IMG/VR virus record: IMGVR_UViG_3300045988_126226
Span: 131,035-192,808 of that record
Source of the DNA: a virus
Strand: one strand, 5' to 3'
DNA length: 61,774 nucleotides
Part shown: piece after piece, positions 393-61,774 of the stretch
Layout of the letters: each line of letters begins with the position of its first letter
Position numbering within the stretch: the stretch's first letter is position 1
Position numbers and translations under genes: made by a program
Notes under the pieces: model-generated
Database searches by the model: none
What the model saw: the letters and a program-made list of their open reading frames with translations, nothing else
What the model was told of the DNA's origin: nothing

Positions 393-427
393 TATTTTTC
401 AAAAAATAATATTATTAACTAATTTAA

Positions 428-2125: not shown

Positions 2126-2186
2126 AAATCCTCCTTTTCCACATAACGAAAAAATGGGAGAGAATATTTCTATTCTCTCCCATTAA

Positions 2187-2375: not shown

Positions 2376-2381
2376 AATTAA

Positions 2382-3449: not shown

Positions 3450-3473
3450 AGGTTTTTTTCCTCCTTAAAAAAT

Positions 3474-4199: not shown

Positions 4200-4780
4200 T
4201 ACTTTTCAGTTCTTTTTTTAAAATCTTCTATAAATCTTTCCTCATCATTAGGATTTGGCATAAATTTCTTATCTTCTTCACCATGGACTGCTTGATACAT
4301 AAGACACAAACCAGCATATTCATCAGTTAAAATAATTTGATTAGCACCAAGAAACTCCAACTTGCCAATACCAGTTAAATGTGTTTTATCTATCATACTG
4401 TCAATTTCAGCAGCAATGCGATAAGGGCGTAATTGATAATCTTTTAAATGCCACTAATCATAATGACACACAATATCAAATTCAATAATATTATCTCTAA
4501 ATTCTGGATTTTCACTCTAGACAAAATTATCAAAATTAATAACTATATAATTTAATACACTTCCATCAACATAAAGTTTAGGAATTATTTTAATATTTTT
4601 ATTAAATAATTGAATCATCTGTTCATCATTTAAATCCGGTTTATCAATAGCATCTTTTGTTGTATAGTATAATAAACGTTTAAGTCTTTCATTTTTACAA
4701 AGATGCTTTACAACAATTTCTAAATCTTTTTCAACAGAAAGAAAACTTGATTTAGGTAAATTTACACCATTAATTTTCAT
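4199..4780 (-). CDS. late structural protein (193 aa, 3 TAG)
   Basis: ATG 4780-4778 with SD aaggag; 4517..4780 and 4199..4396 in frame via TAG. Confidence 0.5.
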
Positions 4781-4795
4781 AACACCTTTTACTCC

Positions 4796-5860: not shown

Positions 5861-6062
5861 AATTTATCTCCTATAAAAGACTGATAGTTTCAAATACAGT
5901 CTTACGATAAAAATTAAAATCAGTATCTTGATTCTACAATCCCTCAAGTTTGTTTAATAACTATAAATAAAGGGGTTCAGCGTTAAAAATCACACTAAAC
6001 CCCACAATTTCATTTATAACAGTTTCTAGCTATTTATGCCAATCTTCATTATTTTCGCGCAT
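5844..6062 (-). CDS. small late protein (72 aa, 4 TAG), overlaps next gene start
   Basis: ATG 6062-6060, TGA stop at 5844; weak. Confidence 0.25.
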
Positions 6063-6141
6063 TGGAATTAATTTCCATAATTGATTGGTTAAGCGCAAAC
6101 AATTTACTTTTATACTCTCTATTGGAATATCAAAATTATAT

Positions 6142-6720
6142 TTAGTAATCATATCGACTTTTAAATACATCCCAATTAGATTCATACTCACCTTTATTAT
6201 TTAAACGTCTGCGTTTATATAAACGCTACATATGGTGAGATTGTCTTTGGCATTCACCTAATAAATTCAATAGTTTTGATAGATGATTTGCCTAAGAAGT
6301 AAATTTAAAATCAGAGCCACTATATTTCATTCGAGTATTCTCAATTGAAGTGACTTGTCTTTGCGTCCAACCGCACATCATTAAAATAGCTAAAATATTA
6401 ATTTCTTCTTCAGTTAGATCACAATTAAAACTGGATCTATCAACTAAAACTTGAGGTTCTTCACCCGGTTCTGGAAGTTCCCCCCATACTGTTCCTACAA
6501 TAAAATCATCCGGCATAGCGTCAGATTCATTAATAGTAGCGACATCTAAATTATAATTTAAAAGATTTTTTCGCGGAAATTCAAATCCAGGAATAGCATC
6601 TATTATAAGATTCTATAAATCTCTTAAAGTATCTTCGGGGGTTAATTCCAGATACATATCATCAGTAACCTTGTTTAGAAAGCGATTATAAACAGTTGAG
6701 AATAATGTTCCCACTTAATC
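6142..6720 (-). CDS. late structural protein (~192 aa, 3 TAG)
   Basis: GTG 6720-6718 preceded by SD ggaggg; includes ORF 6292..6516; TAA stop. Confidence 0.4.
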
Positions 6721-6733
6721 GCCCTCCTATAAA

Positions 6734-7327
6734 TTATTTCTTGGAGGAAGTTTCCTCGGTTTTATTAATTACTTTATATCCAGAACCGCTTGTGCGACGA
6801 CCTTGAGTAGTAGGCTCTTCTCTTACTACACGGCGCTTAGCCGCAGGTTCTTTCTCTACAATAGTATCTTCTTCTTTACTAGCGATATCATTAGCAATAG
6901 CTTTATCAACATCAAACCCAGTTTTTTCCTTCAAAGCTCTACGCTTATTAATATCAGTAATAGGAAGGCTAACAGATAAATTCTTGATTAAGTCAATAAT
7001 TCCAATAGGAGCAAAATCAAGAGCATCTAAGAAAGCATCTAATGAGCCATTAAGAATTAAATCAGCAACTTGTTGCTCTGACATATTATATTCAGGTTCA
7101 GTATGAACATTAAGAGTATGAGTTACTTCTGGCTCTAAAATTTGTAAAAAATTAGCGATTAATTCACGGCCGCCTGCCTGGTAAGTTAATTTCTCTAGCT
7201 CACCAAATGGAATACGCTTAGTTTCACCGGGCGCAAATTCACGGCGCAAATTAGTATCAGGAATAGTATAAACAACTACACTAGTGCTTCTATTTTTTAC
7301 ATTATAAATATCTTCATTATTAATCAT
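6734..7327 (-). CDS. head-associated protein (197 aa), basic C-terminus
   Basis: complete ORF with SD aaaggag, TAA stop; lies between capsid candidate and tail genes. Confidence 0.55.
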   Translation of the reverse strand: MINNEDIYNVKNRSTSVVVYTIPDTNLRREFAPGETKRIPFGELEKLTYQAGGRELIANFLQILEPEVTHTLNVHTEPEYNMSEQQVADLILNGSLDAFLDALDFAPIGIIDLIKNLSVSLPITDINKRRALKEKTGFDVDKAIANDIASKEEDTIVEKEPAAKRRVVREEPTTQGRRTSGSGYKVINKTEETSSKK

Positions 7328-7359
7328 TATTCAATTTCTCCTTTTACCCATAAAACAAA

Positions 7360-7396
7360 AATATGGGGGGAGGGAGTTTAATCCCTTCTCCCCATG
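7360..7396 (-). terminator. intrinsic terminator downstream of capsid gene
   Basis: G/C-rich hairpin ggggggaggga...tcccttctcccc plus T-run on minus strand. Confidence 0.45.
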
Positions 7397-7413
7397 GAAT
7401 AATTTATATTAAA

Positions 7414-8520
7414 TTAGACAGTACCGTCAAGGCGACCATCATAAGTGATAACCTTACCAGTAACTCCATCATAATTCCAAGTATACATCTGACCGAGAAG
7501 TGAAGTATCAACATAAGCACAGATGTTATTAGTAAGCATACAAACTATGCCAACCTTCTTGTAAACCTGAATCTCACGAGAACGATCATAATTATTGAAC
7601 TCATCAACAATAGTGCCGCCTTCGAAAGCAATCTTTACAGGCTTACCATCAGCGCCCGTAGGAATAACCCAAGCATAACCAGGATCAATAACCTTACGAG
7701 TATTAGTTTCATCTTCAAAACCCTGCTCAAGAATAATAACCTTAATGCCCTTATAAGTAGCAAGACGACCATTATTCCAAAGCTCGTTCTTCATAGCTTC
7801 AGTATATCTCCAAGCCTCATGAGGAATCATCTTAACAGCGAACTCATAAGTACAATAAATAGTAGGAGTACCATAAGCAGAAGCAATAGTGATCAAACGA
7901 TCCATAGCAGCTTCATCAAATCCGGCAGCCGCAACGCGGTTAGCAGGAGGAAGCTGATTGATAGAAGATCTAAGAGCCGCAGCAACTTCTTTATAAATAA
8001 GTTCATCCATACCATCCATGATGATCTTGGTTACTTCACCGAAATCAACACGACCATCAAGGAACTCTTCGAAGCCAATCTGAGCAGCTCCGCCGATAGC
8101 GCTAGTACGTACCTCGAAGGCTTCATTCTCTTTAGGTCCGAGCTTGAAGACTTCGTAAATACCAGCAAGACCAACGCGAGTTACAAACTGCTTAGCACGA
8201 GCGCGGTTATTAAGAGGACGACGGAAAATAGGCTTATCACCCTGAGCGAAAGTCTTAACCTCAGCAAACTGATCGTATTGCTGAATAACTTTCTTAGGAA
8301 GAACCTCATCAAGAGTCTGCTCGATCATGGAGAAAATAAGATTCTTATTTTCACGATAAAGAGCATAAGTACCAGCCAACTCATTCATTTCATTACGAAG
8401 AGTTTCATTTAAGGCTTCATAACTAAGATTTTTTCCCTCATAACTATAAGCAACAGGAGCAGAAGGATCAGCCTTAGCAACTTGCTTCATAAGAGCAATT
8501 AAATTATTTTTATCTAACAT
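7414..8520 (-). CDS. major capsid protein candidate (368 aa, TAG-free)
   Basis: uninterrupted ORF, SD aaaggag, followed by terminator; size and position (after scaffold-like gene) fit an HK97-class MCP; absence of TAG may reflect high expression. Confidence 0.45.
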   Translation of the reverse strand: MLDKNNLIALMKQVAKADPSAPVAYSYEGKNLSYEALNETLRNEMNELAGTYALYRENKNLIFSMIEQTLDEVLPKKVIQQYDQFAEVKTFAQGDKPIFRRPLNNRARAKQFVTRVGLAGIYEVFKLGPKENEAFEVRTSAIGGAAQIGFEEFLDGRVDFGEVTKIIMDGMDELIYKEVAAALRSSINQLPPANRVAAAGFDEAAMDRLITIASAYGTPTIYCTYEFAVKMIPHEAWRYTEAMKNELWNNGRLATYKGIKVIILEQGFEDETNTRKVIDPGYAWVIPTGADGKPVKIAFEGGTIVDEFNNYDRSREIQVYKKVGIVCMLTNNICAYVDTSLLGQMYTWNYDGVTGKVITYDGRLDGTV

Positions 8521-8537
8521 TATCCTTTTCTCCTTTC

Positions 8538-9455
8538 TTACTTAATACGCATTACCTTGACGCCCTTTTGACCATCAGGCATAGTATAAACCTTAACAAC
8601 CTGCCAGGTCATTGAATCGTCGCCAGTTTTGCTAAGAATACCCTTTGTAGCAGCAGAAGGAGAAAGTTTATCTCCAACAGCAAGAGTCTCTTCATTAATC
8701 ATATTAGTAGTATAAAGATCACCAATCATGGTCTTAAATACACGAGGAACCATAGAAGTGCCAGATTCCATGAACTTCTCATGATAGATACCTAACTTAT
8801 GATATGGATCATTGGTCCAATTCATTTCATACATATCAGGAACATCAGTAAGAAGTTTATCATAATAATACTTTACAGGAACATTAGCAACCTGATGATT
8901 ACTATCAAGAGTATATTCATTACCATCATAGGTAAACTTGCCGGTTTCATCAACATCATAAACACGACCAGCAATAGTAACAGTCTTTAAACCCTGATCT
9001 GCGGAAACGGTCTGATTGATTAATTTATAGGTTTGACCCTTTTCATCAACGCCGTTCCAGAAACGACCACCATATTCAACCTCGGTATGCTCCCAATCAT
9101 AAGGACTATAAACACGAGCCTGATAGTCATCTTTAATCATAGCAAATTCGCAATCCCACTGCTTACTGCCATCATAATGATCGCGATAAAGCTTGATCTC
9201 GTTATAAACGAGCATCCATTCACCTTCGCCAGTGAAGTTGACTTCGCCAATACCATTATCATTAGCAGCATAGTCATACTTTACAAACTGACCGTTTTCA
9301 AGAATCTCAATGTCTTTATTAGCAGGAAGTTGAGCATAGATTTGAGCATTTCTTTGTGCGGAAAGGTGATTAGGCTCGACCTGACCGTAACCAAACTCAA
9401 CATACTTTGCCTGAGACTTAATAAAAAGATTCTTATTCAAAAAGTCTTTAAACAT
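8538..9455 (-). CDS. head protein (305 aa, TAG-free); alternative MCP or decoration protein
   Basis: uninterrupted ORF with SD aaggagg between scaffold-like gene and MCP candidate. Confidence 0.45.
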   Translation of the reverse strand: MFKDFLNKNLFIKSQAKYVEFGYGQVEPNHLSAQRNAQIYAQLPANKDIEILENGQFVKYDYAANDNGIGEVNFTGEGEWMLVYNEIKLYRDHYDGSKQWDCEFAMIKDDYQARVYSPYDWEHTEVEYGGRFWNGVDEKGQTYKLINQTVSADQGLKTVTIAGRVYDVDETGKFTYDGNEYTLDSNHQVANVPVKYYYDKLLTDVPDMYEMNWTNDPYHKLGIYHEKFMESGTSMVPRVFKTMIGDLYTTNMINEETLAVGDKLSPSAATKGILSKTGDDSMTWQVVKVYTMPDGQKGVKVMRIK

Positions 9456-9472
9456 TTAGTATGTCCTCCTTA

Positions 9473-11059
9473 TTAATTTTTGTTGGCGGTAGCAAAAGCC
9501 GCCTTCACCCAAGCGGGCATATCATCATCTTCTGAACCATTATCGTTCAAATTAAAAGTAGTAGCACCATTGGGCTTATTATTTTCGTCAAGGTCGAAAC
9601 TCACCTTGTTGCGAACACAAATAACAGATAATTTAGCTTCAATATCATCAAGAGAATATTTATCAATATTTTCAACAACATCAGCCTTATCTTCATCAGA
9701 AAGCATATAGAATTTAGCAATCATATCTTCTTTATCTTTCTTCTCAGCGGCATTTTTAAATTCAACAAGTGGAGCAATTTGCTCTTTCAAGCTATTATTT
9801 TCAGTTTCAAGAGCCGCGAATTTAATCTGTAATTCATCATACTGAGCTTTAAGTTCAGTATATTCAACAACGTCCTCAAGAGAATAATTTTTCTTTTTCT
9901 TTTTATCATCATCATTCTCGCCATTGTCGCCTTTATCAGACTTATTAGAGGGTTCCCCATTATCAGGGTTCTTTTTATTATCATTGCCCTCTGATTTATT
10001 ATCAGGGTTTTGGCCATTAGATTTATTATTTTTGTCCTCTTCCTCAGCCTTTTTCTTTGAAGCATAGTCAGTCTCAAAAGCTTCAACATCAGCAAGAACA
10101 AATTGAGGCTCTGCTGCCGGAGTATAAGACTTAGTTACTTCAGTTAAAGCATCAGAAGGAACAAAGCCTTCTACATCGGTAAGAGAAAAGTCCATGCGAT
10201 AATATTTTTGGTCTTGTCTATTTTGAAGAATAGCAAACTTTTGTCCAGCATCTTCATAAACGCCTTCAATGCGATAAATAGAACAATAACTACTAGGCTC
10301 GCCAGGATATTTAGTCTCAACATAAGACCAGAGAGAATTCCACAAACTATCGCCAATTTCAACAGCATATTGTGTAAACACTTTGGGTCCTCCTTCTTTC
10401 ATAAATTCTTTAAGTTCATTCATCATGGAGAACAAAGTGTTCTTAAAACCATCATCGAATGAAAAATTCACATTGATTTGGGAGCCTTCGAAACAAGGTT
10501 CATTTTCTTCTCCCAAAATACAAAGTTTAGAAATAATTGCCTTATTTATAATAAAAAACTAAGGCTTTCCATTACTATCTTTTGCCCACGTAGCATTTAA
10601 TGTTTTTTCATCAAGCTCCATAGAATGATTATTCCCTTTCTCAACTACACGTTTACACTCAGGATACTAACCAGTCCACAAATAACCTTCAGTCATTAAA
10701 TACTCACGTTCAGCAACACCATCATCCAAAAATTTCTAAAACCAAACTTTAGCTCCAAGATCAACAAAACCATAAGGGCGAGTATTATCTCTCATTCTAA
10801 ATTCGCCATTAGATAACTCAATTATCCTATTATGTTCTTCAAAATCTTCCGCATTCTCATTAAAAAAGCCAACAATAGGACTGCCAGGAAGGCTATTAGC
10901 CATCTCAGTCGCTACATCTTTAGTAATTACGCTTTTGTTACGATTAGGTTTATCATCTACATAACAAACCTTAATTTGACATTTAGAAATTAAAGGATTT
11001 ACAGGAGTTATATTTATAAACTCACAAGGTGTATTTAATTTAATACTTGTATGTTTCAT
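9473..11059 (-). CDS. prohead protease/scaffold-like fusion protein (528 aa, 3 TAG)
   Basis: ORF 10736..11059 (ATG, SD aaggagg) continues in frame through TAGs into ORF 9473..10516; C-terminal coiled coil and K/D/N-rich low-complexity tail; sits immediately upstream of capsid genes. Confidence 0.45.
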
Positions 11060-11068
11060 AAATCCTCC

Positions 11069-12631
11069 TTATTTCATCGCTTCTTTATTTTGAATAGTTT
11101 TTTCACTTTTCTAATCATCAGGTTTTTCCGGACGTCCTGCCTCGCCATTAGAAACTTTAGCAGTTCCAGAACCTGAACTTCCTGAATTATTTTGAGTTTT
11201 ATTATTAGATGATGAACCTTTTAAACCCAAAATATCTTCACTACCCATAGTAGAACTCATAAGAGGAGGAATCATAATTTCACTTAAATGTAAAATCTCA
11301 TTTTCAAAATGAGCTGCATTAAGAATAAAACTCTATGAATGTCCAAGAGCAATCTAAGACAATAGTTTTGATTGTCCCATTTGCGCTTGTTCTTTATACA
11401 TTTTAGAAAGTGTTTGATAATTATTTTGAGTAGTTTCTAATAAATAAAATCTAAAATTATATTTTTTATTACTACTCTTTTTCTCAATAATTCTATTAAA
11501 GAATATATTAAACTATAAAATTAAGCTTCTTATTGTAGATTCATCATTTAATACTGATTTTTCTAAAGCCATATTGCCATCAGTATTAAATAAATTCTAT
11601 GAAATACCTAATGAATTATAAACACTACGTTCAACTTTAGCTAAATCATCTGTCGTTGTAGTAGTATTCTTATCAGACATATCAATAGAATCTACATCAG
11701 TAAATGTAGTTAAAACATCTACTCCAATAGCCCTCTATAACATCTAAACGGCATTATTATGGATATCTCTGGCTTCATCAACATCAAATATCAAATCACC
11801 ATTTTTATCCATTGGGAGCTTTTGGACTAAAATTTTAAGCAACTTCTACATTTGTTTCTTGCGGTCAAGATCTTGCGCTGCATCTAAATCCATAATAGTA
11901 GGAATGGAATTTACAAAAATAGGAACATCACTATTATTAATATTAAATTTAATACAATTTTCTGGCTCAAGAACATACCAACTACCAGTATGCTAGCATC
12001 CAACCGCTTCTTCTAAAGCAAGTTTTCCTTGCTTATATAAAACATAACCTTTAGCAAATTCTTCTGGGAATAATTTTAATACTTTTAAGCGGTAATTCAT
12101 ATCTCTAAAAGTATCAAAAAATCGCATATCAAATTCGACAACTGGGGTATTATTTACACTATAACGTGTTCTACAATATCTAACGGGCAATTCTTGTAAA
12201 ATTAGATTTTTTTCTGAAGGAACTATATATCCATAATAGCATCCATTTTTAACGACTTGTAAAGCAATATCTCCGCAAATCTTTTTAATATAACTATTAT
12301 CAAAATAATTCAGCATTCTATAAAAATCTTTTAAAACTTTTTCTTCTTTTACATTATCATCATAAGTTTCGGCCGCAATATACCAATCATAGCGGTATAA
12401 AAAAGCAACATAATTACAAACTCGTTGATATACACCACTTATATCATAATAAAAATTAGAAATGTATCGTAAAGCATTTAAGTCCCTTTCTGCGAGCGCG
12501 CGAAGCACATCAGGTTTCGTGATAATACGAGTTTGACCTGGGTATCTAATCTTACTATAATCACCAAGTTTTAAAATAGCATCATCTAAAGTTTTTGTGC
12601 CAACTTTTATTTTTCTATTGGCATAATCCAT
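11069..12631 (-). CDS. portal protein candidate (~520 aa, several TAG)
   Basis: ORF 11993..12631 continues through TAGs to TAA at 11069, which abuts the SD of the next gene; Ser/Gly/Asn-rich C-terminus; position after terL; start could be TTG near 12718. Confidence 0.45.
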
Positions 12632-12731
12632 AGTGTCATTATAATTATATTCATAACGACTATTATAAATATCAAAACCTTTAGCGTGAATCTAATCATT
12701 ACGATCTTGCGTATCCAAAGTTCCACCTCCT

Positions 12732-13088
12732 TTAATAACCTGCCAATTTCATTATATAATCATAAGAAATAAGGTTTTCGTCGGTATATGGAATCTCTAT
12801 TAATCTAAAATCATGTAAAGCGCAAAAACGTCTTTTTTGATTATCATTATATTGCTACTGGTATAAACCGCGTTTTCCGCCAAATTTAGAACTGGCTTCA
12901 TAATGCTATTTTCCCTAATACTCAATAATGAAATCAATTTTTCCATCATCATCAAATATAACAAAATCAAAACGAAGCGGACGCCCGCTGGGGCTTTTTA
13001 AATCTGGAAAGATATATTCCATTTTAAAAGGTAGTCCTGCTTCTTCTAAGATTTCTTCAATTTTAATTTCTCCTCTTGAAGCACGCAT
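12732..13088 (-). CDS. stand-alone PD-(D/E)XK (Vsr/DUF559-like) endonuclease, HEG-like (118 aa, 3 TAG)
   Basis: ATG 13088; motif RFDFVIFDDDGKIDFIIEY-Q-GKQHY resembles the C-terminal domain of the 40346 endonuclease; inserted between terL and portal. Confidence 0.45.
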
Positions 13089-13100
13089 TTTCCACCCTCC

Positions 13101-14840
13101 TTAATTTAAAAAGCACCAATCAGCCGCATTAAACTTTTTACGTTTTTTCTTTTTATCTTCTTCAAGTTTTAAATAATATAATCCATATTCAAAAGCCGAA
13201 AATTTATCTTTACGAATTCCGCGATTCGCCTGTTTTAGAATAATATTAATACCTTCATTTTCTTCGCGTAAATTCATCATTTCTTCTTTTAATATGGAGG
13301 TTAAAGTAAATGGTTTTAAATAATCTGCCCTTTGTTCAGAAGTCATTTTTGAACCTTTTTGAGTAGCTAATAATTTTTCTTTAGCTGTTCTCTCATCTAT
13401 TAAGAATTTTATCTTGCCCGCCTGTAATTGAGTCTAAGCATTAGCATGACATTCAGTATTTATTGGAGCATTTGCTTTAATAACATACATAGCATCAAAT
13501 TGAGTATTTGGTGTGCGATATTTTTTATAATATCCATCATCATCATTCTCAACACCAAAATCAGGTAAAAATTCACCATCTTCATCATTTTGAGATTTTA
13601 CCATATAATCTAAAAGTCCAATACCTAAACCGTTACCGTCTATAACCAAAGTTTTAGCTTTATATTTATAAAATAATTTCTTTAATTTAATAGCCTAATC
13701 TTCAAAATGGTCATCTGACATAGTATACATATTTACTAAAGATTTAATAGCTGGACCTTGGGCTTGTGGTGTTACTTTAAATACGCAAACTACCGAATCG
13801 CACCCCTTACGACCTACATCTACAGAAAGCACATAATAAGCTTGCGCGCCCGCGCGTCCAGAAGCTTCATATTCAGGCTATAATAGTTTTCTATTTCTAT
13901 CAAAATGCTCTCCATTAAAGAAAGCATCTTCAACAGTTCCTGACCACTTAGATTCATATTCACGTTCAAATGAGGCCTCGTTATAAGTTCCTTCATTCTT
14001 TTGGTCAGTAATAAATGTCTTACTTTGTAATCCTACCGCAACAGGAGTTCGCCATGTTCCACCTAATACCATACAACGATCGGGCTAAGTCACCATACGA
14101 ACTAAGAAACCAATAAGTCTATCATAAGGGAACGTGCCCTTATAACCAGCAGTAGTAATATAGATTTGTGATTTATTTAATGGCTCTTGTTCATTGGTAG
14201 TGCCATCTTTAGCTCTACGAGAAATTGCCATAACAGGAATAATAACTTCACGAAGAATAGCATCATCAATACCAACACACTCTTCCATTAATCCACCATG
14301 ACGACGCTGACCACGAGTGCTTTCACGAGCTGCGAGGTTATCCAAAACTGAACCATTTTTAAATACATATCTAACTTTATCTTTTCCTTCAAGAGTTTTT
14401 CCTCGGCTCCAATCAATTTCTCGATTAAAGTTTGGAATAAGTTCACATATTTCTTGAACTTTATCATGAAGAATACTAGCACCTTGCTCTTTACCTCCAG
14501 AAGTAACGAACAAATGCGCACCAGGATATAAAATACATCTAATCATTAATGCCATAACAGACAAAAATGATTTAGAATAAGCACGAGGGAAAACCGCGTA
14601 AACATACTAATAACGCATAACAGAACGGAGAAATACTCTCTAATAAAAATAAAAATTAAATTCTCCATCTTTTATTTCAGTGCGTCTTCCTCGCACCATA
14701 AAATCTACAAATAAATCAGGATATTCTCTCCAAAAGGCAACGTATTTGCGGATAGTAGGCATTACCGCTTCTACTCGCTCCGGTGATAACCCTATTTTTC
14801 TACGGCTATCACTTAACTACAGTAAATCTTGTAATGCCAT
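13101..14840 (-). CDS. terL: terminase large subunit (579 aa, 7 in-frame TAG)
   Basis: hand translation joins ORFs 14085..14564, 13878..14072, 13434..13649, 13101..13346 in one frame through TAG; N-terminal ATPase region and C-terminal nuclease-like IDGNGLGIG/ESKWSG motifs; ATG overlaps upstream stop (TAATG). Confidence 0.6.
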
Positions 14841-16027
14841 TATTTATCCAAACCCTATAAGAACTCATTATCTTGCGCAGACTCCTATTCTTTAAATTCC
14901 TCAAAATCCGCGTAATCACTATCTTTAATAGTTTTTTCAAGTTCTTCAATACTTAAATCAGCATCATCAACGATATCGCTTTCCGCGTTCTTTGCTTTCT
15001 CTTCATCTTCTTTAGCATTTTCGCGTAAAGCCTTTTCTACCATTGTGCTAATATTAGTTTCATCTTCAATAAGAGTGCGAGTATAACGTTGCATATCTTG
15101 AATAGTTAAATCCACTTTATCATGTGGCTATTCAACATAATATCTTTCAATATATCCTTCTTTTTCACATAATTCAATTAATTCGCCAATTGAATCAACA
15201 AATTCACCTGATTCTGCTTTGTTTTGAGCAGCAGTAAATTTACCAGACTTCATTAAGCTATCGTATACTTTGCTCATCTTTTGGAAACCTTCAATATCAC
15301 CAATATCGATCAATTGATTTGCCTTTAAAGATGTCTTACATATTAATTTTAGCGTATCTTTATGTCCGGCACCTTGAATATCATAAGAAGCCATCATTTC
15401 TTCATACAACTATTCAAGCTTAACCCATTCTTCAGGCTTATAAGTCTTGCCCCATTTAAGTCTTAAATAAGTGCGGTCTTCATCAGTTAAGTCTAACTCT
15501 TGTTCAACTTTACCACTCTATTGTGCAAAATAATCTTCCGTAGGGGCATTAGGTGGTGGAGCATAAACCGGTTCTTTTAATTCTCCTCCTGGAATAGTGA
15601 TTGAACTTTTTTCAATAGCAGTTGCGATCTACTGAGCGTCATATCCTTGACGTTTCATAGTTTGCTCTAATTTATTATTCGCCATCTATTGTAAAAATTC
15701 AGTATCTTTCCAACGATAATCTTTAAACTATTTGAGTTTCATTTTTGACAAATAACGTCCAAGAATCGTCATACCGGTCATAGACTGCGGATCGCGCCCA
15801 TATTTTTCCATTAATTTATTCCATTCATCTGGAACATAAGGAACATCCGCTTCTTGTAAAATCCATAAATAAGTATCTGGATTCCAATTATCGACGTGCA
15901 TTGTCATACATTTTTTGCACACGGGAAATTTACCATCATTAGGATATTTTTCTAAATTATTAGATGAATAAAATTCCGTGCCATTCATTGTACGATTACA
16001 TTTTTCGCAATAATATGTTTCAGCCAT
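14840..16027 (-). CDS. Zn-ribbon protein upstream of terL (395 aa, 7 TAG); possible small terminase/DNA-packaging protein
   Basis: ORFs 15728..16027, 15128..15409, 14885..15115 share one frame via TAG; N-terminal CxxC...CxxC; acidic C-terminus; coupled to terL. Confidence 0.4.
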
Positions 16028-16076
16028 AAATAAAATATTCTCCTTTCAACTATTTATTATAAACAAAAGGACAATA

Positions 16077-17132
16077 TTAAGATTTTTTGGCCTTAGAATT
16101 TCGACAACTTTTACAAATACTATAAAAGCCATCTTTGCTTGTTTTATTTTTACTAAAATATTTATTATGAGCTAATTTTATTTTACCACAACGACTACAT
16201 TTTTTATATTTACCTTTTTCAACATTTAAATAATAATTATCTAAATATTCATCTTCCGCAGTCGAAGCAATTAATTTTGGAATTTTATTACGCCATAAAC
16301 TTGAAATATATTCAAGGCTGTGCTTAATACCAAATTCCATTTGTATTTTCTCTTGAATGTCAATATTTTGTAAACCATCAATTTTATATTCAACGATTCT
16401 ATCATAAAGAGGATAATTAGCTAAAGCTTTATCACAAAGCTTATCAAAATCCTCCATTAAGTACCACAAGTCTTTATCATATTCGCCCCAACTATCTTGT
16501 TTTAATCGGGAATAATTACATAAAACCGCAGAACATATTTCAGGTCTTAATAAACTAATTCCATCAGGAATGGGAAAACCATCATCATCAAAAATAAATG
16601 TTTTATCATCTAATGGAATATAAGACTTTGATCTGGTTAATTTTGTAGGCACTATTGGACGACGATAAGCATTTTTCATAACATACTAATCTTTGCGCAT
16701 TTCAATAAGAGCCTTTTTAATAACAAAAGCATCTTTGCCTTCTGTTACTTTTAATTTAGCCTCCCAAACATTAATGGCTTCTCTTAACTAATTTAAACTT
16801 GGTATCTCTTCTAAATCTTTTTTTGTAATTGTAATATGTGGTTGAAATATTGTATTTCTATTATTTGTAATTAAATTATAAATTCCATCTTCGCCATTTT
16901 CGAGTTGGGAAACAAGACCTTCAAAAGAAGTCTCACGCTTATTAACTGTAGCCATACGATTATCAGTTAATAATTTTTTCTCCTTTTTTTCTTGTTTCTC
17001 CATACAAAGAACCAAATAGTCTGCTAAAATTTCTAAATACTTTTCAGGCGGATCTGGATTATCAGCCAAAATTTGTTCGACTAATTGATTTCTTTCTTCT
17101 GGAGTTTGTAAAGAATAATCAAGTTTTATCAT
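16077..17132 (-). CDS. first gene of late operon (351 aa, 2 TAG), C-terminal CxxC Zn ribbon
   Basis: ORFs 16788..17132 and 16077..16679 in frame across TAG; ATG 17132 directly after divergent promoter region. Confidence 0.45.
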
Positions 17133-17324
17133 TTTTTACCTCCAGTCTATATTTATATTATACTCGAAAAAATTTTTTTTGTCAAGTTTCATTTAAAATT
17201 TTTTCTTTTTATATTTAAAAATTTTTTTAATAAAACAAATAACTTTTGCCCAATCACGCTCCACGATTTGACATTTCTTTATTTTTATTTTATTATTATT
17301 ATAAGAAAAAGAAAAGGAGTATTT
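17133..17324. promoter_or_regulatory. divergent AT-rich promoter region between late (minus) and early (plus) modules
   Basis: TTGACA-like boxes on both strands, A/T tracts, followed by SD aaaaggag and ATG 17325. Confidence 0.4.
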
Positions 17325-40197: not shown

Positions 40198-40356
40198 ATG
40201 AAAACTAAAAATAGTAGAATTGAAATTAGATTGCCTGAATAGATTAAAAATCAATTTCAGCTTTTAGCGAATAAAAAAAATACTACTATGAGCGCTATCT
40301 TATTAGAATACATTTTATTTTTACTAAGAAAAGAAGGTAATGAAAATGGGATATAA
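40198..40356 (+). CDS. ribbon-helix-helix (Arc/CopG-like) DNA-binding protein (52 aa, 1 TAG)
   Basis: SD gaggtg; beta-strand RIEIRLPE-Q-IKNQFQ followed by helices; overlaps start of endonuclease gene. Confidence 0.45.
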
Positions 40357-41269
40357 AATTGATATGACTGGATAGAAATTCGGTCGTTGGACTGTCATAG
40401 GTTTTGATTGTAATAAAAATAGACGAACTATGTGGAAGTGTAGATGCGATTGTGGCACTGAAAGAAGTGTTGAAGGAGCTCGTTTGAGAGGTGGTCGATC
40501 AAAATCTTGCGGATGCCTTTTAAGAGAAAGCACAGCATTACGTAGTCGTAAAGACATAACAAATTAGAGGTTTGGTCGATTAGTTGCTTTATATCCAACC
40601 GAAGAGCGTCAAGGTGGAAAAATTATTTGGTTATGTAAATGCGATTGTGGTAATGAAGTAAAAGTCCCAATAGATAGATTAACTGGAAAAAATACTTAGT
40701 CTTGTGGTTGTTTATCGAAAGAAAAAACAAGTGAAAGATTTTGTATTGATTTAACGGGATAGATATTTGGAAAATTAACTGTAATAAAAAGAGATAATAC
40801 TAAAAACTATAAACGAGTGCGTTGGCTTTGTAAATGTTCTTGCGGAAATTCAGAATTAGAATCTGTTGATGGCTATTATTTAAGGTCAGGAGAAAAAACT
40901 CAATGTTCTAAATGTGTTCCTAAGTCAAAAGGAGAAGAACAAATAAAAAATATTTTAATTAAAAATAATATTTCTTTCACACAAGAAAAAAGTTTTGATG
41001 ATTGTCGTTTTCCTAAAACTAATAGACTTGCTCGTTTTGATTTTTATATAGATAATAAATATTTAATAGAATTTGATGGAAGATAGCATATTTAGAATAC
41101 CAGTAAATGGAACAGTGAATGGAATTTAGAATATGTTTAGGAGCATGATTAGATAAAAAATAATTATTGTAAAGAACATAATATTCCTTTAATTAGAATT
41201 CCATACAGTAAAATTAATTATATCAAGCTTGAAGATCTTTTATTAGAAACTTCTAAATATAAAATATAA
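40346..41269 (+). CDS. multi-repeat Zn-ribbon / PD-(D/E)XK homing-endonuclease-like protein (307 aa, ~9 TAG)
   Basis: three repeats of G[KR]W..C[KR]C.CGN..(n)..SCGCL plus C-terminal FDFYIDNKYLIEFDGR-Q-HI Vsr/DUF559-like domain; open only with TAG as sense. Confidence 0.5.
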
Positions 41270-55976: not shown

Positions 55977-55992
55977 TAAAGGAGGGATTTAA

Positions 55993-57408
55993 ATGCCAAA
56001 TACTTATAATCCTTCTGGCACTTCTATAACTGACTATTCTTCTATTAAATTTATCCCAGGAGATACTATTAATGGTAGTTATTCGGGAGCAGTAAATCCA
56101 GTAAAGCTTCCCGCAGGAAATTATCAACTAGAGTGTTGGGGTGGTTATGGTGGAATCGGCTATTCTGGTTCTTTAACTTCATCAACAATGACTTCATGGA
56201 TATATATAGGAAGTGGTAATGCAACTAGCTATTTTAACATTAATAATGATTCAAATTATTATTTTCGTCAAGATGGAAATGATTGGATAGCTACTAATGG
56301 AGGAATAAATTCAAGTACTGCTACAACTACATTAACTTGTACTTCTGGAGGAACTTATAAATTTTCATATTATTATAAAACTGAAGCGGGCTATGATGAA
56401 GTCACTTTAATAGTTGGAGGAACTACAGTTTTAAATGCTGTTTCTGGATCAAGTTCTCTTACTACCACTGGTACTTACTCTTTATCGTCAGGATCTACTA
56501 TTGTAATGACTTACTCTAAAGACAATTCAAGTTCAGTAGATAATGAAGAAGTTTATTTTTAGATTCAAAAATAGGAAAGTAGTACCACTTATACTCCTGC
56601 GAGTTCAAAAAATAGTTATTGGGGTGGGACAGGGGGATATTCTACGGGTATTCTTTCTTTATCAACCCCAACTTCTATTTATTTGTATACAGGGGGGCAA
56701 GGTAATTATTCAAGCGATAGCGAAAAAGGCAAAACGGTTGATGGTGGATTTAATGGAGGAGGTAGCTCTAAAATTAGATGGTATACTTCTGCTTATAGTT
56801 CCGGCGGTGGTGGTGGTGGAGCTTCTGATATTCGTATTGGATCAGATTCTCTTTACGCTCGTGTAATCGTTGCTGGTGGTGGTGGTGGCGGAGCAGGAGA
56901 AAGTAAATCTTCTGTTAAACAAGGTGGTGGATTAACTGGTAATTCTGCTGTTGAAGAATATAAAGCTACATAGACTAAAGCTGGTACTAATGGATCATTT
57001 GGGTAGGGAGCTAATTCTACTGGTTCTGGTAATTATAATTATGGTCCTGGTGGCGGTGGTGGCGGCTGGTATGGCGGCGGTGCTTCTACTAATGTAAGCG
57101 ATGGATCTGCTGATTATAGAACTTATAACGGTGGTGGTTCTGGTTATGTATATACTTCATCAACTGCTTCTAATTATCCCTCTGGCTGTTTATTAAATAG
57201 TAATTATTATTTAACAAATGCTTCTACTACAATAGGATATAGTAAAACTAATCCAGGAGGAAAACATGGATATATTCGTATTACTGTATTATCACCATTA
57301 AATGTAAAAATTAATTCTAATACTTATGTCCCTATTAAAGCAATATATACAAAAATAGATAATACAACTTGGAAAGGAGGTATAACCACATGGCAACCTA
57401 TGACTTAA
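55993..57408 (+). CDS. Gly-rich fibre/receptor-binding-like protein 1 (471 aa, 4 TAG)
   Basis: SD aaaggaggg; ORFs 55993..56562 and 56683..56973 co-linear via TAG; GGGGGGA and NGG repeats; motif LPAGNYQLECWGGYGG; C-terminal HGYIRITV. Confidence 0.5.
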
Positions 57409-58691
57409 CTTCTTCAATTCCTTCTTCTTCTTTTTTAAAAACGGGAGATATATTAAATTGTCCTTATAGCGGAACATATAAATCTATTACTCTCCCAAAA
57501 GGTACTTATAAATTAGAATGTTGGGGTGCTTAGGGAGGAAATGGAACTGCTTCTCCTTCTAATAATTCTCAATTATTTGGAGGAAAAGGAGGTTATTCAT
57601 ATGGAGTTTTTTCTCCTACTTCAGATACAGTTTTATACCTTTATTCTGGAGGACAAGGGGCAACTGCGACTGATACTTCATCCGGCCCAAATGGAGGATA
57701 TAATGGAGGAGGAGCTGGCAGTAAAAATGGAGATAATAATTCTAATACTCAAACTTCAGGTGGAGGAGGAGGAGCAACACATATTGCGATTACTTCAGGA
57801 TTATTAAATACTTTGTCTTCTTCTACGGCTTCAATTTTACTCATAGCTGGTGGAGGAGGAGGAGCTGGAGGTTGGTATGGTTCTTTCTCAACTCAATCTA
57901 GTGATGGCGGATATGGAGGAGGAAATTCTGGAGGATCTGCAGCGAATGGAGGAGGATATTCCGTCTCAGGAGGAACTCAATCAAGTGGATACTCTTTTGG
58001 GCAAGGGGCTAGTGCTTCGACTCATGTAGACCAAGGAGGTGGCGGAGGAGGATATTATGGAGGATATTGTTCCACTGGCACTTCAGATAGTAATATTTGT
58101 GGAGGAGGCGGGGGTTCTGGATATATAAATACTTCAAAACTTACTTCTGCTTCCACAATAGCTGGTAATACTTCATTTACATCTCCAACAGGGACAACTG
58201 AAACCGGACACAGCGGAAATGGATATATAAGAATTACTATTTAGTCTATTGTTAACTGGGCTTATTCTACTATATCAATATCTGCTCCTACTTATAATAA
58301 ATAGAATACTTCTTCTTGGACTTTGACTCCAAGTGCTTGTCGTTATTTTTCTTTTACCCCTACTATTTCAGGAGATTTTATTGTTTATTCTAATTCTTCA
58401 ATAGATACTTATGGTTATTTAACATCAAGTATTACTTCTCTTAATAATAGTGGATCGCCTTCTTCTAATATTTTAGCTAGTAGTGATGATTCCGCAAGAA
58501 AATATGGTGGATCTGGATATAATTTTGGTATTTGTTATAAAGTTACTGCCGGAACTACTTATCATATATTCGTTAAACCTTATAGCGATTCTACTACAGG
58601 TTCAGTATACTTAACTTATTATATGGCTCATCCTGATAGTAGAGTATATGTAAAAATAAATAACACTACATGGAAACTAATAACGAATTAA
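57390..58691 (+). CDS. Gly-rich fibre/receptor-binding-like protein 2 (433 aa, 3 TAG), paralog of previous
   Basis: SD ggaaaggagg; motifs LPKGTYKLECWGAQGG, LYSGGQG, NGYIRITI; includes ORFs 57813..58244 and 58323..58691 in one frame. Confidence 0.5.
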
Positions 58692-58770
58692 AAAATTTTT
58701 TGACATTTTTAAAAAAATAATATATAATATATTTATAAAATAAAGAAAGACCTTTACAGCAAAAATAACT

Positions 58771-58841
58771 TCCAGAATAGACTAAAGGTTAGGTCATAAT
58801 CATTTAAGATTAAGTTAATGGTTCAAATCCATTTTCCGGAC
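58771..58841 (+). ncRNA. tRNA-like element with non-canonical 6-nt anticodon loop
   Basis: acceptor 6/7 bp, D arm with GG, perfect T arm aatgg-ttcaaat-ccatt; anticodon stem taatc/gatta closes a 6-nt loop ATTTAA; needs tRNAscan/Infernal. Confidence 0.25.
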
Positions 58842-58863
58842 AAAGTTAAGGTCTTGTTTATAC

Positions 58864-58948
58864 AAGGGGGTCGCATAGCGGCGATTGCATCGGTCTCCAA
58901 AACCGACGGTTAATACCCACCAGGGTTCGAGTCCCTGCCCTCTTGCCA
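58864..58948 (+). tRNA. tRNA with anticodon CCA (Trp-type) but long variable arm
   Basis: acceptor aaggggg/ccctctt, G73, anticodon arm tcggt-CUCCAAA-accga, variable hairpin ggt-taat-acc, T arm caggg-ttcgagt-ccctg, encoded CCA. Confidence 0.6.
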
Positions 58949-59028
58949 AAACATTTACTTTGGAGGTCGAATTTATATAATTATATAAAAATAAATTTTA
59001 TATAATTATGAAAGGTAGATGTTTAATT

Positions 59029-59775
59029 ATGATAGGAATTTATAAAATTACAAATAAAGTAAATAATCATTGTTATATTGGATAGTCAATAAATATTTAT
59101 GATAGATGGAAGCATGAAAAAAGTGATGCTTTTCGTGAATAGAGTAAAAGTTATGATTATCCTCTTTCACGAGCATTAAGAAAATATGGAGTAGAGAATT
59201 TTACTTTTGAAATTTTAGAAGAATGTTCTCGTGAAGATTTAAATAAAAAAGAAATTGAATATGTTAAAAAATTTAATAGCTATAATGATGGATATAATTA
59301 GACATTAGGTGGCGATGGAACCAAGGGGTTTCAAATAAAATTATCTAATGAAGATATTTATGAAATATATAAATTACTATTAAATGAAGAAATTACTCAA
59401 AATGATATAGCAAAAAAATATGGCGTTGGGATAGATACCATATCAGAAATAAATCATGGGAAAACTAGAATATTAGATGGTTTTACATTTCCTTTAAGAG
59501 ATAATAGAAAAATTCATTTTTGTGTTGATTGCGGAAAAGAAATTTATCGTAGCTCTATAAGATGTAAAGATTGTGATTCAAAAAATTAGAGAAAAGTAGA
59601 ACGTCCTTCTCGTGATATTTTCAAATCTGAAATTAGAAATATTTCTTTTTTACAATTAGGTCATAAATATGGAGTTAGTGATAAATCAATATCTAAATGG
59701 TGTAAATATTATAATTTACCTAGTAAAAAATCAGATATAAAGAAAATTTCTGATGAAGATTGGAAGAATATTTAA
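59029..59775 (+). CDS. GIY-YIG homing endonuclease, I-TevI-like with Zn finger (248 aa, 4 TAG)
   Basis: N-terminus MIGIYKITNKVNNHCYIG-TAG-S (GIY...YIG); DRW; CVDCG..CKDC zinc finger; SD aaagg. Confidence 0.6.
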
Positions 59776-59861
59776 TTTATTTAAACAAAAGAACTTTTTT
59801 GATTTTATTAAAAATATATAATATAATATATATAGAAAGTTGAGAAAGGAGAAAATAAATA

Positions 59862-60044
59862 ATGAATATTGAAGTTGGTAATTCTTATTGTTTTGTCCCT
59901 TATCGCGGTCGTTGTTATCGTAGACAGTATCTTAAATGTACTGTCATTCGAGTATTAAATTATCAGATTGAAGTCCTTGATGAGCATGGTGAAAAATGGC
60001 TTCTTTCAGAAGATGATTTAATGCCAATTCAAAGACCTTATTGA
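59862..60044 (+). CDS. hypothetical small protein (60 aa)
   Basis: middle-type promoter; SD aaaggag; TGA. Confidence 0.5.
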   Translation: MNIEVGNSYCFVPYRGRCYRRQYLKCTVIRVLNYQIEVLDEHGEKWLLSEDDLMPIQRPY

Positions 60045-60197
60045 CATTTTATAAAAAATATTATATAATATTTATATAAGATGAAGAAAGAAAAAAGAAA
60101 ATAAAAAAACTTGGGTAAAAGAGAAAAGTTGATTTTTTAAAAAAAATATAATATAATAAATATATAAAGTAAGGATTTTAAAAAGTCCTTCTTTTAT

Positions 60198-60743
60198 GGG
60201 AGATTAGCTCAGCTGGTCAGAGCATTCGGCTGTTTACTTGACCTTATCATTTTCTTATAAAAAAATGAAATGAATAGTAAACAAAAAGGTAATATTACCG
60301 AGCTTGAAACAATGTTAGCATTTATGAAACTTGGTTATAATGTTCTTACTCCTTACGGAGATTGTGAGCGTTATGATTTTGTGGTTGATGTAAATGGTAA
60401 ATTTATTAGAATTCAAGCTAAAACATCGCGAACTGAAGATGATGGAGCTTCTTTTGCTTTTTCAGGTAGAAGTTCTCACAGGAAAGATGGAAAGATAGTT
60501 CATCATCAATATACTAACGAAGAAATTGATTACTTCGTAACTACTTTTAATGGAAAATGTTATTTGATTCCAGTGGAAGAGTGCGGAGCAGATAAAAGAC
60601 TTCGTATTCTTCCGCCTAAAAACAATCAAGTAAGAGGTATTACTTGGGCGAAAGATTATGAGTTGGAGGAAGTAGTAAGAAAATGGTAAGCTGATGTGTA
60701 AGCAACCGAAGTGCCATAGGTTCGAATCCTATATTTCCCGCCA
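60198..60743 (+). tRNA. tRNA gene split by a 469-bp intervening sequence (exons ~60198-60233 and ~60703-60743); anticodon after splicing depends on junction (GUC/Asp if group-I-like U|...G| junction)
   Basis: 5' half gggagat-ta-gctc-agctggtca-gagc-a-ttcgg; 3' half ccgaa-gtgcc-atagg-ttcgaat-cctat-atttccc-g-cca pairs perfectly with 5' acceptor and anticodon stem. Confidence 0.55.
60270..60689 (+). CDS. PD-(D/E)XK-type endonuclease encoded inside the tRNA intervening sequence (139 aa)
   Basis: motif YDFVVDVNGKFIRIQAK (D..D..QxK); occupies nearly the whole insertion; analogous to intron-encoded PD-(D/E)XK homing endonucleases of tRNA group I introns. Confidence 0.5.
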   Translation: MNSKQKGNITELETMLAFMKLGYNVLTPYGDCERYDFVVDVNGKFIRIQAKTSRTEDDGASFAFSGRSSHRKDGKIVHHQYTNEEIDYFVTTFNGKCYLIPVEECGADKRLRILPPKNNQVRGITWAKDYELEEVVRKW

Positions 60744-60983
60744 TTGGGGCGTTAACACGGATTTTGTAAGTTTAAACTACCACCGATCGAAAGAGTATGT
60801 GGCTTGCGGAAAACGCCCGACTAAATATAAGGAAGCGAAGTAAAACTTATTGTGAAGTAGTGGCTATACTCACATTAATCAAGGCTAAGGGTTCTGGGGA
60901 TCCAAAAGAGTAAAAGTTGGTTCGAGTCCTAACGATTGACGAAGTTCGAATCTTCGCGATGTGGGTTATAAAACTCTTTATTT

Positions 60984-61155: not shown

Positions 61156-61231
61156 GGGCTTCGGGACTGCATGGCGTGGTCGTCTGTCTTGCACACAGAA
61201 AATCAGGTGAGTTCGATTCTCACGAGGTCCA
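61156..61231 (+). tRNA. tRNA-Ala (anticodon UGC)
   Basis: acceptor gggcttc/gaggtcc with G3:U70, A73; D stem gact/ggtc; anticodon arm tctgt-CUUGCAC-acaga; T arm gtgag-ttcgatt-ctcac; no CCA encoded. Confidence 0.6.
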
Positions 61232-61704
61232 GTCATCTAAAATTCACAACCGCCACGAGGTAGATGATGGGTAACGCTAATAGTGAATAGAAATGGTTAT
61301 ATGGTGTAAAGTGTAAGCACGGCGGTTAAGTAAACCGCAAGTTTGGGAGCATTGCCCAATATAACCGATTATATGACGATTATATGATTGGTGATAAAAG
61401 CAGCCAGAAATATTATCTTATTAATTAAACTTAATACAATATACTAAATGATATAATAGATAAGGTATATTAATAAAACTTATATATAATAAGATAATAT
61501 ATACAAAATGCTAATAGTGATTTTGGTTTCAGCGCTAAGAAAGTTTTTCCCACTAAGAAGAGAAAATTTGAGTAGTTAGCGTAGTCTTGATAATTATATC
61601 TTAAATAATTATCCCTTTTTGGCTCATAACCTTTTTTTGGATAAAAAATTATATTATATTTACCGTGATGCCGCGGAGGGACGGCCGCCCTAAAGTGCGA
61701 TTAA

Positions 61705-61774
61705 GATTAGAAAGAAGTTGGAAGATCTTCTTAAAACTTCCATTAGATTAGAAAGAAGTTGGAAGATCTTCTTA
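61705..61774. repeat. 29-bp direct repeat GATTAGAAAGAAGTTGGAAGATCTTCTTA x2 separated by 12 bp, at window edge
   Basis: read directly; contains palindrome AAGATCTT. Confidence 0.7.

Follow-up and report, generated by a model that had tools for sequence, protein, structure and literature searches.

Analysis of a 61,774-nucleotide (nt) stretch of viral DNA (positions 131,035 to 192,808 of IMG/VR record IMGVR_UViG_3300045988_126226; hereafter the window) revealed a transfer RNA (tRNA) gene for asparagine that is split between tRNA positions 36 and 37 by a 469-nt insertion, nearly all of which is an open reading frame (ORF) for a homing endonuclease. The insertion occupies one precise site at which otherwise collinear phage genomes differ in its presence or absence, its ORF is of the I-Ssp6803I type, it contains no self-splicing group I core, its two ends form a covarying RNA rod in the sense strand, and the tRNA halves that flank it make a cloverleaf when joined. 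We propose that the insertion is a mobile, ribozyme-less tRNA intron that is removed by proteins, a reading to which we assign a probability of about one half. All coordinates are positions within the window, on the plus strand unless stated otherwise, and labels such as L003, L012 and L105 denote loci related to the window's element.

Exon 1 of the split gene (60198..60234) reads GGGAGAT-TA-GCTC-AGCTGGTCA-GAGC-A-TTCGG-CTGTT and supplies the 5' strand of the acceptor stem, the D arm, the 5' strand of the anticodon stem and loop positions 32-36 (CTGTT), ending with U36. Exon 2 (60704..60743) reads AA-CCGAA-GTGCC-ATAGG-TTCGAAT-CCTAT-ATTTCCC-G-CCA and supplies A37, A38, the 3' strand of the anticodon stem, the variable loop, the T arm, the 3' strand of the acceptor stem, the discriminator G and an encoded CCA, both halves having been read directly from the sequence. 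ARAGORN with default settings and Rfam missed this gene in the window. ARAGORN in intron mode recovered it with an intron of 469 nt (60235..60703), and the joined exons gave a flawless 77-nt cloverleaf called as tRNA-Asn(GUU), with the 7-nt anticodon loop CUGUUAA, the GUU anticodon, the invariant U8, G18-G19 and the T loop TTCGAAT. Two claims of the initial annotation, which had been made from the letters of this DNA, held at this point: that a complete tRNA appears only after 469 base pairs (bp) are taken out, and that no choice of junction yields the anticodon CUA. The split tRNA is confirmed as real, with corrected boundaries. About 130 nt upstream of it lies a σ70-type promoter-like site (60041..60069, TTGACA-17-TATAAT), called from its consensus match alone (12/12 positions), and a second, weaker promoter-like site, also a consensus match, lies at 60129-60157.

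The junctions, 60234|60235 and 60703|60704, were placed with the help of the cultured Enterococcus phage EFP01, in which tblastn found a 59%-identical ORF inside a split tRNA-Asn, the homologous insertion being 463 nt long and occupying the same 36/37 site. When the EFP01 exons were joined at CTGTT|AACC, 33 other Schiekvirus records aligned in one piece, at 97-98% identity and with an annotated tRNA-Asn. Alignment of phage iF6 with both EFP01 junctions likewise gave a clean 463-nt insertion at 36/37, and other boundaries failed to give an intact gene. Because in EFP01 only CTGTT|AACC restores the intact annotated tRNA-Asn of iF6, the window junction, as placed from this comparison, is at 36/37. 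The insertion is present or absent at one precise site in genomes that are otherwise collinear (EFP01 versus the 33 Schiekvirus records, whose tRNA-Asn is uninterrupted), which supplies the comparison with insertion-free relatives that the initial annotation had recommended. That annotation had set the junction at 60233/60703, which is the junction for Asp and lies one base to the left of the correct 60234/60704. Of the anticodons it had offered, Asn(GUU) is borne out and Asp(GUC) falls, both on the EFP01 and iF6 comparison, and the rule that had led to Asp, a U before the insertion and a G at its end, is inapplicable to an element family whose insertions end in C or A.

The ORF (60270..60689, 139 amino acids) matched Pfam PF11645 with E = 4.8e-32 (111 bits, cut-off 26) and the I-Ssp6803I structure, PDB 2OST, with E = 9.5e-10. 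Its AlphaFold model, with a predicted local distance difference test (pLDDT) value of 88, superposed on 2OST with a template modelling (TM) score of 0.76 in Foldseek, in which the next-best folds were Hjc Holliday-junction resolvases and the tRNA-splicing endonuclease was not among them. Residues E11, D36, Q49 and K51 were invariant in a 14-member alignment with identity down to 39%, corresponding to an intact E...D...QxK active site. Judged by its sequence and by the modelled fold, the product clearly belongs to the I-Ssp6803I/PF11645 family, in agreement with the original view of the insertion as almost wholly a PD-(D/E)XK endonuclease ORF. The ORFs were open in 101 of 111 loci, and nine of the remaining ten were interrupted by in-frame TAG alone, which is consistent with TAG-recoded phages such as that of the window.

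Relatives of the ORF product numbered 665 at E <= 1e-10, and the loci scanned comprised 35 viral loci, 10 in species-representative genomes and 80 from metagenomes, the last drawn from 155 stretches that matched. In 111 of the 128 loci encoding ORF relatives, the ORF lay between positions 36 and 37 of ARAGORN-valid cloverleaf halves, and across ~110 loci the insertion measured 433-490 nt; because the same arrangement recurs at this rate, the split is more than a chance juxtaposition. Automatic junction calls assigned 68 loci to Asn(GUU) and 19 to Ile(GAU), and further targets were Lys(UUU), Gln(UUG), Thr(UGU), Ile(UAU) and a tRNA with the anticodon UUA, to which parsing by hand added Ser(GCU). 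About 95% of evaluable copies sat in perfect cloverleaves although their ORFs had diverged to 40-60% identity. The loci outside the 111 were truncated contigs, chimeric or rearranged genes (L073, L079, L011 and L095), non-tRNA copies (L124 and L128), L105 and distant homologues. Among genomes, the loci nearest the window's ORF (L039-L043) were tRNA-array contigs binned with Clostridium, Acutalibacteraceae, Erysipelotrichaceae and Ruminococcus. Two kinds of unusual target were also seen. L065 has an Asn-like tRNA body of class I with the anticodon GCU, perfectly paired to the terminal AGC of the insertion, and is either a mutated tRNA-Asn or a sequencing error. In L023, L093 and L098 the insertion lies in a tRNA with the joined loop UUUUAAA, whose anticodon UUA would read the UAA stop codon, and these members have no GAC/CUGAU loop (described below).

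The window and L003 have 99%-identical ORFs and the same flanks and differ in their tRNA-Asn exons, as co-conversion would produce. An uninterrupted tRNA-Asn with an anticodon arm identical to that of the L003 type was present in 13 viral contigs, in unrelated contexts. The initial annotation had raised the prospect of an intact copy of the window's own tRNA elsewhere; no uninterrupted copy was found in viral contigs, and all eight contigs found of the window's own lineage carried the insertion. A second gene with the same anticodon occurred in 1 of 35 arrays, counted within the fetched locus, and iF6 has one tRNA-Asn among its 22 tRNAs. Distant relatives of the ORF adjoin intact tRNA-Asn, tRNA-Met and tRNA-Ile genes, and distant homologues (<=41% identity) are free-standing beside intact tRNAs in the haloarchaeal virus HSTV-4, Kuttervirus and phage My1. 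In the Halorubrum virus HSTV-4 (L144, 593-1200), the free-standing homologue lies between an intact tRNA-Asn(GTT), which precedes it, and a duplicate of that tRNA's T arm and acceptor 3' end. No circular or tandem end-to-end junction of the insertion, which has GTGTAAGC|TACTTGACC at its ends, was found in viral contigs.

Several lines of evidence indicated that the insertion contains no ribozyme core. Its non-coding part comes to 35 + 14 = 49 nt, matching the first estimate of less than 50 nt, too short for a classical group I core, whose P3-P9 region takes some 180 nt or more. Rfam found no group I intron in the window at the gathering threshold. At E <= 10, on a 3.5-kilobase (kb) stretch and on a 671-nt stretch, there was no match to a group I model (RF00028, the check first suggested for this locus), a group II model or a small ribozyme, and known small self-cleaving ribozymes at the junctions were rejected for want of Rfam matches. 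As a positive control, the 218-nt tRNA-Leu(UAA) group I intron of L012 (4858-5062 of that locus) was found over the full model with 47.4 bits and E = 2e-10, just below the Rfam cut-off of 50, and the endonuclease insertion 1.5 kb upstream of it gave no score in the same search; because the control intron was found, the search is sensitive in this setting. A genuine tRNA-Leu(UAA) group I intron, identified by ARAGORN intron mode and sequence only, also lies beside a ribozyme-less insertion in L028 (~170-550).

A codon-entropy profile of 25 homologues showed no constrained stretch, with synonymous variation along the entire ORF; because codon choice varies throughout even at conserved residues, no ribozyme core is hidden in the ORF. 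Across the family, the only conserved nucleotides were U33, A37 and a single U-A pair, that of the first insertion base. The boundary rules of group I introns were broken in several ways: the insertion ends in C or A, a base that varies with position 34; position 36 pairs with insertion base -3, as U-A, and not with a guide G, and in Gln members it is G; and there is no U-G at the 5' junction.

The ends of the insertion were predicted to fold back on the anticodon arm in a rod of two helices. In the minimum free energy (MFE) fold, and with support from covariation, helix 1 joins 60231..60237, which comprises U33, anticodon bases G34-U36 and insertion bases 1-3 (UGUU|UAC), to 60698..60704, which comprises the last six insertion bases GUAAGC and A37, with AGC paired to the anticodon GUU. 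An internal loop follows, in which the GAC of the 5' side (UUGAC, 60238..60242) is conserved in the Asn/Lys clade only and the CUGAU of the 3' side (CUGAUGU, 60691..60697) is conserved in the same clade. Helix 2, of 16 bp with 2 G-U pairs in the MFE fold, joins CUUAUCAUUUUCUUAU (60243..60258), upstream of the ORF start, to GUAAGAAAAUGGUAAG (60675..60690), which contains the TAA stop codon (60687-60689).

Mini-precursors of every clade fold alike with different sequences, the order from the tRNA outward being the anticodon stem, the unpaired 32/38, helix 1, the internal loop and a helix 2 of 12-16 bp that closes off the ORF. Across clades, helix 1 consists of U33-A37, of positions 34-36 paired with the last three insertion bases, and of insertion bases 1-3 or more paired with bases -4 to -6. 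Members of the Ile, Gln and UUA types lack the GAC/CUGAU loop, and their rods come close to simple duplexes. A continuous helix, irregular only at the 32/38 mismatch, runs through both junctions, which fall on opposite strands at a distance of three base pairs. As in the intervening sequences processed by RNase III, the ends of the insertion prolong a helix of the host RNA into a long duplex.

Comparative evidence supported this fold. Across 71 distinct, ungapped sequences, standard pairs filled 97.7% of cells, a figure inflated by a choice of junctions that relied partly on helix score and required U33 and A37, versus 64.6% in shuffles (none of 500 reached it) and 36-45% with the partners slid; the double changes at insertion bases 2 and 3 are free of this inflation. 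The covariation score was 0.81 versus 0.16, and both sides change in 11 of 12 pairs. The terminal triplet of the insertion tracks the anticodon, with AGC opposite GUU, AAA or AGA opposite UUU, AUC opposite GAU, CAA opposite UUG and ACA opposite UGU. The rod of the sense strand was stabler than that of the antisense strand in 64 of 78 cases (p = 3.5e-11) and contains ~11% G-U pairs, therefore indicating that selection acts on the transcript.

Other interpretations of the rod and its surroundings were considered and set aside. A bulge-helix-bulge register was rejected by manual check and by folding, no alternative pairing giving two 3-nt bulges. A kink-turn (K-turn) or box C/D-like interpretation of the GAC/CUGAU loop was dropped for its unfit bulge sizes and the lack of the loop in other clades, and the resemblance of the 3' end of the EFP01 insertion to the D arm of its tRNA was put down to helix 2 and to the way the sequences had been aligned. 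A trans-acting role for ROOL RNA was also dropped, this RNA being found near the tRNA arrays of EFP01 and L026 only and not in the window; it lies inside the split-tRNA arrays of L024 (EFP01; 3930-4516, 265 bits) and L026 (4611-5235, 341 bits). Phage transfer-messenger RNA (tmRNA) genes are present in L025 and L026.

We propose the following route for a mobile tRNA intron of this kind. The homing endonuclease would recognise the near-palindromic anticodon-arm DNA of uninterrupted tRNA genes, mostly at U36-A37, and would cut the intact gene, and repair would copy the entire element into the 36/37 site together with neighbouring exon sequence. In the transcript, the insertion ends would zip into a long rod stacked on the anticodon stem, which would leave the tRNA body free to fold, mask the anticodon and set both exon-insertion junctions three base pairs apart on opposite strands, marking the two cut sites. 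Proteins, rather than RNA catalysis, would cut at the two junctions, and an RNA ligase would rejoin U36 to A37, in parallel to archaeal and eukaryotic tRNA splicing. In such a route the cuts could be made by a factor of the host or by the PD-(D/E)XK endonuclease that the intron encodes, the RNA then mimicking the enzyme's DNA target, and sealing could be by an RNA repair ligase. From its sequence the tRNA still looks functional, with intact halves, an encoded CCA, an upstream consensus promoter and only rarely a second gene for the same anticodon. The helix that tracks the anticodon, the ~95% of copies in intact cloverleaves despite divergent ORFs and the presence of the insertion in every contig found of the window's lineage also speak for this route. 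The broader proposal, that phages and bacteria practise protein-dependent splicing of widespread ribozyme-less mobile tRNA introns at sites set by an anticodon-pairing rod, is one that we hold more tentatively.

A number of points weigh against removal by proteins. Excision and ligation, and the enzymes that would perform them, are what we infer from the features described above, and we know of no bacterial enzyme whose cuts in the two strands of an RNA helix are staggered by 3 bp. The 2-nt stagger of RNase III would give a 6- or 8-nt loop and does not fit precise splicing at the DNA-defined junctions, which are 3 bp apart. Neither an RNA ligase nor RtcB was found among 20 window proteins (Pfam, PHROGs) or in the 100-kb annotation of iF6, a result that is uninformative rather than negative. 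Splicing by host factors would be expected to permit ORF-less forms, yet none turned up: in viral contigs, TGACC-N20-50-GCTGATGTGYAAGCAA matched only twice, by chance and within coding sequence, and ARAGORN intron mode over all loci returned true group I introns and false positives only, with no ORF-less mini-intron. The intact exons could reflect recent, repeated homing rather than selection for function, and the halves are mismatched or rearranged in L073, L079, L095 and L011. Finally, in L105 (540-1075) a closely related endonuclease gene and a rod of 45 bp (z = -6.4) lie between an intact tRNA-Ile(GAU) and a tRNA-Val; only a remnant of the anticodon arm is left around them, yet the 36/-3 pair has been preserved through compensatory change from U-A to C-G, and therefore a rod can be kept for the sake of the endonuclease itself, with no tRNA to splice.

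L105 therefore supports the most serious competitor, an unspliced selfish cassette, which we regard as possible. According to this explanation, the endonuclease gene homed into the anticodon loop and inactivated the tRNA, and it persists by repeated homing. The rod would serve the endonuclease transcript, for example in processing by a double-strand RNase, in protection of its ends or in insulation from neighbouring tRNAs, and the halves would look intact since each copy is a recent arrival in a working gene, those in dead genes being quickly eliminated. Such a cassette is in keeping with the retention in L105 of a rod with no surrounding tRNA body, with the free-standing state of the relatives in HSTV-4, Kuttervirus and My1 next to intact tRNAs, with the failure to find ORF-less derivatives and with the chimeric or decayed state of some copies. 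The insertion is also present in only 1 of 34 Schiekvirus phages, such that the tRNA may be dispensable, and ORFs are 97-99% alike between relatives versus ~90% for flanks, suggesting recent sweeps.

What an unspliced cassette leaves unexplained is why, whatever the tRNA type, the terminal triplet of the insertion changes with the anticodon, and why the rod starts exactly at the loop with the tRNA body still foldable. It also sits poorly with the predominance of perfect cloverleaves among copies whose ORFs are so diverged, and with the insertion being carried by every contig found of the window's lineage. As to the free-standing state itself, L105 represents it in a close relative, and in the distant relatives that stand free a rod is lacking (z about 0).

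A variant of the protein-dependent reading, in which the endonuclease itself cuts the RNA and a ligase that accepts 5'-phosphate and 3'-OH ends seals the loop, appears unlikely. The lower part of the rod reproduces positions 27-36 of the DNA target, paired to a near-copy of the bottom strand (a half-site plus centre), and the junctions would match a symmetric enzyme with 3-nt 3' overhangs, which I-Ssp6803I reportedly leaves. The predominance of open ORFs, with nearly all exceptions due to TAG, and the failure to find ORF-less forms also count in its favour. Against it, the closest folds are DNA enzymes (I-Ssp6803I and the Hjc resolvases) and not a tRNA-splicing endonuclease, the mimicry is limited to one half-site, RNA in the A form is unlike DNA in the B form, and no RNA activity is known for the I-Ssp6803I family.

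Quite unlikely, in our judgement, is a new and tiny self-splicing RNA, in which the rod and tRNA body would excise the insertion themselves, through cleavage to a 2',3'-cyclic phosphate and religation or through transesterification. The element moves among very different phages and hosts, which favours self-sufficiency, and the asymmetric GAC/CUGAU loop conserved in the Asn/Lys clade could form tandem G-A pairs. The loss of this loop from the Ile-, Gln- and UUA-type members, the absence of family-wide conservation beyond U33, A37 and the first U-A pair, and the lack of a match to any known ribozyme family all argue against it, and direct attack would probably be ill served by junctions placed across a continuous helix.

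A degenerate or hyper-compact group I intron with a core overlapping the ORF, which the initial annotation had entertained as a very compact or degenerate self-splicing intron and which draws on the occurrence of the same endonuclease family in true group I introns of tRNA-fMet (PMC1995217, PMC13011429) and tRNA-Arg(UCU) (PMC13011429), was rejected and is close to refuted by the 49 nt of non-coding sequence, the lack of an RF00028 signal where the control intron was found, the free synonymous sites, the lack of a family-wide core, the broken boundary rules (no terminal G, no U-G at the 5' junction, G36 in Gln members) and the 5' exon having its pairing partner in the 3' end of the insertion and not in an internal guide sequence. 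The alternative offered at the time, another split-tRNA arrangement, came nearest to what we found, a rod-plus-ORF element.

Comparison with known systems placed the window element apart from each of them. The I-Ssp6803I/PF11645 group I introns of tRNA-fMet and tRNA-Arg(UCU) share with it the endonuclease family, the U36-A37 target in the anticodon loop and homing. The Synechocystis tRNA-fMet intron, which uses the same endonuclease family, is 655 nt long with a 150-residue ORF (PMC1995217), and PF11645-bearing bacterial tRNA introns are all >500 nt and contain a ribozyme (PMC13011429). These group I introns have a ~200-nt core, lie in tRNA-fMet at the 33/34 site and obey the U/terminal-G rules (PMC13011429, PMC1995217), whereas the window element is 469 nt long with 49 nt non-coding, lies at 36/37 and has neither a core signal nor a terminal G.

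Archaeal bulge-helix-bulge introns resemble the window element in having a stalk formed by the intron ends, a looped-out ORF, no ribozyme and exon ends that are held together; some archaeal ribosomal RNA (rRNA) and tRNA introns carry LAGLIDADG homing-endonuclease ORFs. Their removal is protein-dependent, which for the window element is our proposal. Their defining motif of two 3-nt bulges around a 4-bp central helix is absent from the window element, whose helix is continuous, and they lie at 37/38 rather than 36/37 and use a different endonuclease family. The splicing of archaeal introns relies on a splicing endonuclease (EndA) and an RtcB-type ligase encoded by the host. The hosts also differ, those of the window-type element being bacterial (Enterococcus, namely E. 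faecium for EFP01, and gut Bacillota contigs), and to our knowledge bacteria have no EndA.

Eukaryotic nuclear tRNA introns likewise pair the anticodon to the intron in the precursor and have sites set by structure, but they are generally short and ORF-less, lie at 37/38 and have their splice sites in single-stranded loops. The ends of bacterial 23S rRNA intervening sequences also extend a helix of the host RNA into a long stem, and some carry ORFs; these sequences are known to be cut out by the host double-strand RNase, RNase III, and the rRNA functions with no religation. A tRNA nicked in its anticodon loop, unlike such rRNA fragments, is non-functional unless religated. Free-standing homing endonuclease genes of phage tRNA clusters, such as T4 SegB, and PF11645 genes of this kind lie beside tRNAs, whereas the window's gene lies inside one. 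The element is thus a homing-endonuclease element in a tRNA anticodon loop that fails the defining tests of group I and of archaeal and eukaryotic introns, and no description of a ribozyme-less split-tRNA arrangement was found in the literature searched.

Bacterial and phage tRNA introns are regarded as self-splicing group I introns, rarely group II, and protein-only tRNA splicing as archaeal and eukaryotic. If the proposed splicing is real, a ribozyme-less intron family in well-kept tRNA genes of gut and rumen phages would overturn the rule that only self-splicing operates in bacteria, would add a third route of tRNA splicing beside group I self-splicing and the archaeal/eukaryotic endonuclease pathway, and would provide a natural splicing substrate for bacterial RNA ligases. 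If the tRNA is instead unspliced, a homing endonuclease would be spreading at the cost of the tRNA genes that it destroys, and would be building a conserved RNA rod for itself. In either case one endonuclease lineage has been retargeted to at least seven anticodons, and because standard tRNA finders overlook ~110 such genes, the tRNA repertoires of phages, stop-codon-recoded ones included, are undercounted. With a member in the cultured phage EFP01 and sister phages that lack the insertion, the question is answerable at the bench.

The phage of the window is itself TAG-recoded, because in regions 1-17200 (minus strand) and 55990-59780 long genes emerge from the reading frames only if TAG counts as a sense codon. 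Frames joined across TAG include the large terminase (13101-14840, minus strand), with 7 TAG codons, and a further joined reading frame (1022-2125, minus strand) with 13. No CUA suppressor tRNA was found in the window. Two further homing endonuclease genes were identified, one of the GIY-YIG type just upstream of the split tRNA (59008-59775; Pfam/PHROGs scan) and one with 8 in-frame TAG codons that matches the PHROGs HNH and homing-endonuclease families (40340-41269).

Several additional RNA features lie near the split tRNA. Upstream, Rfam identified a tRNA (58771-58841, 42.7 bits) with the six-base anticodon loop AUUUAA, which ARAGORN reports as tRNA-??? with a two-base anticodon. A few bases 3' of the CCA of the split tRNA begins a hairpin domain (60744-60845, GGGGCGUU...AAAACGCCC) that is kept in L003-L005, L050 and L051, with a 25-nt apical-loop insert in L050, and whose 54-nt core is also present in L006, L008, L053 and L060; it had no Rfam match. 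It is followed by a G+C-rich non-coding stretch (60856-60983) with two T-arm-like hairpins (GGTTCGAGTCC and GAAGTTCGAATCTTC), in which no tool called a tRNA or tmRNA. At the very end of the window (61706-61774) lies a direct repeat, gattagaaagaagttggaagatcttctta, in two copies. Directly after an unusual tRNA-Ala(UGC)-like gene (61156-61231), positions 61232-61290 gave a weak match, below the curated cut-off (28.5 bits, E = 0.016), to the F. prausnitzii hepatitis delta virus (HDV)-like ribozyme, a layout that resembles the 'theta' ribozymes adjoining phage tRNAs (PMC10879173).

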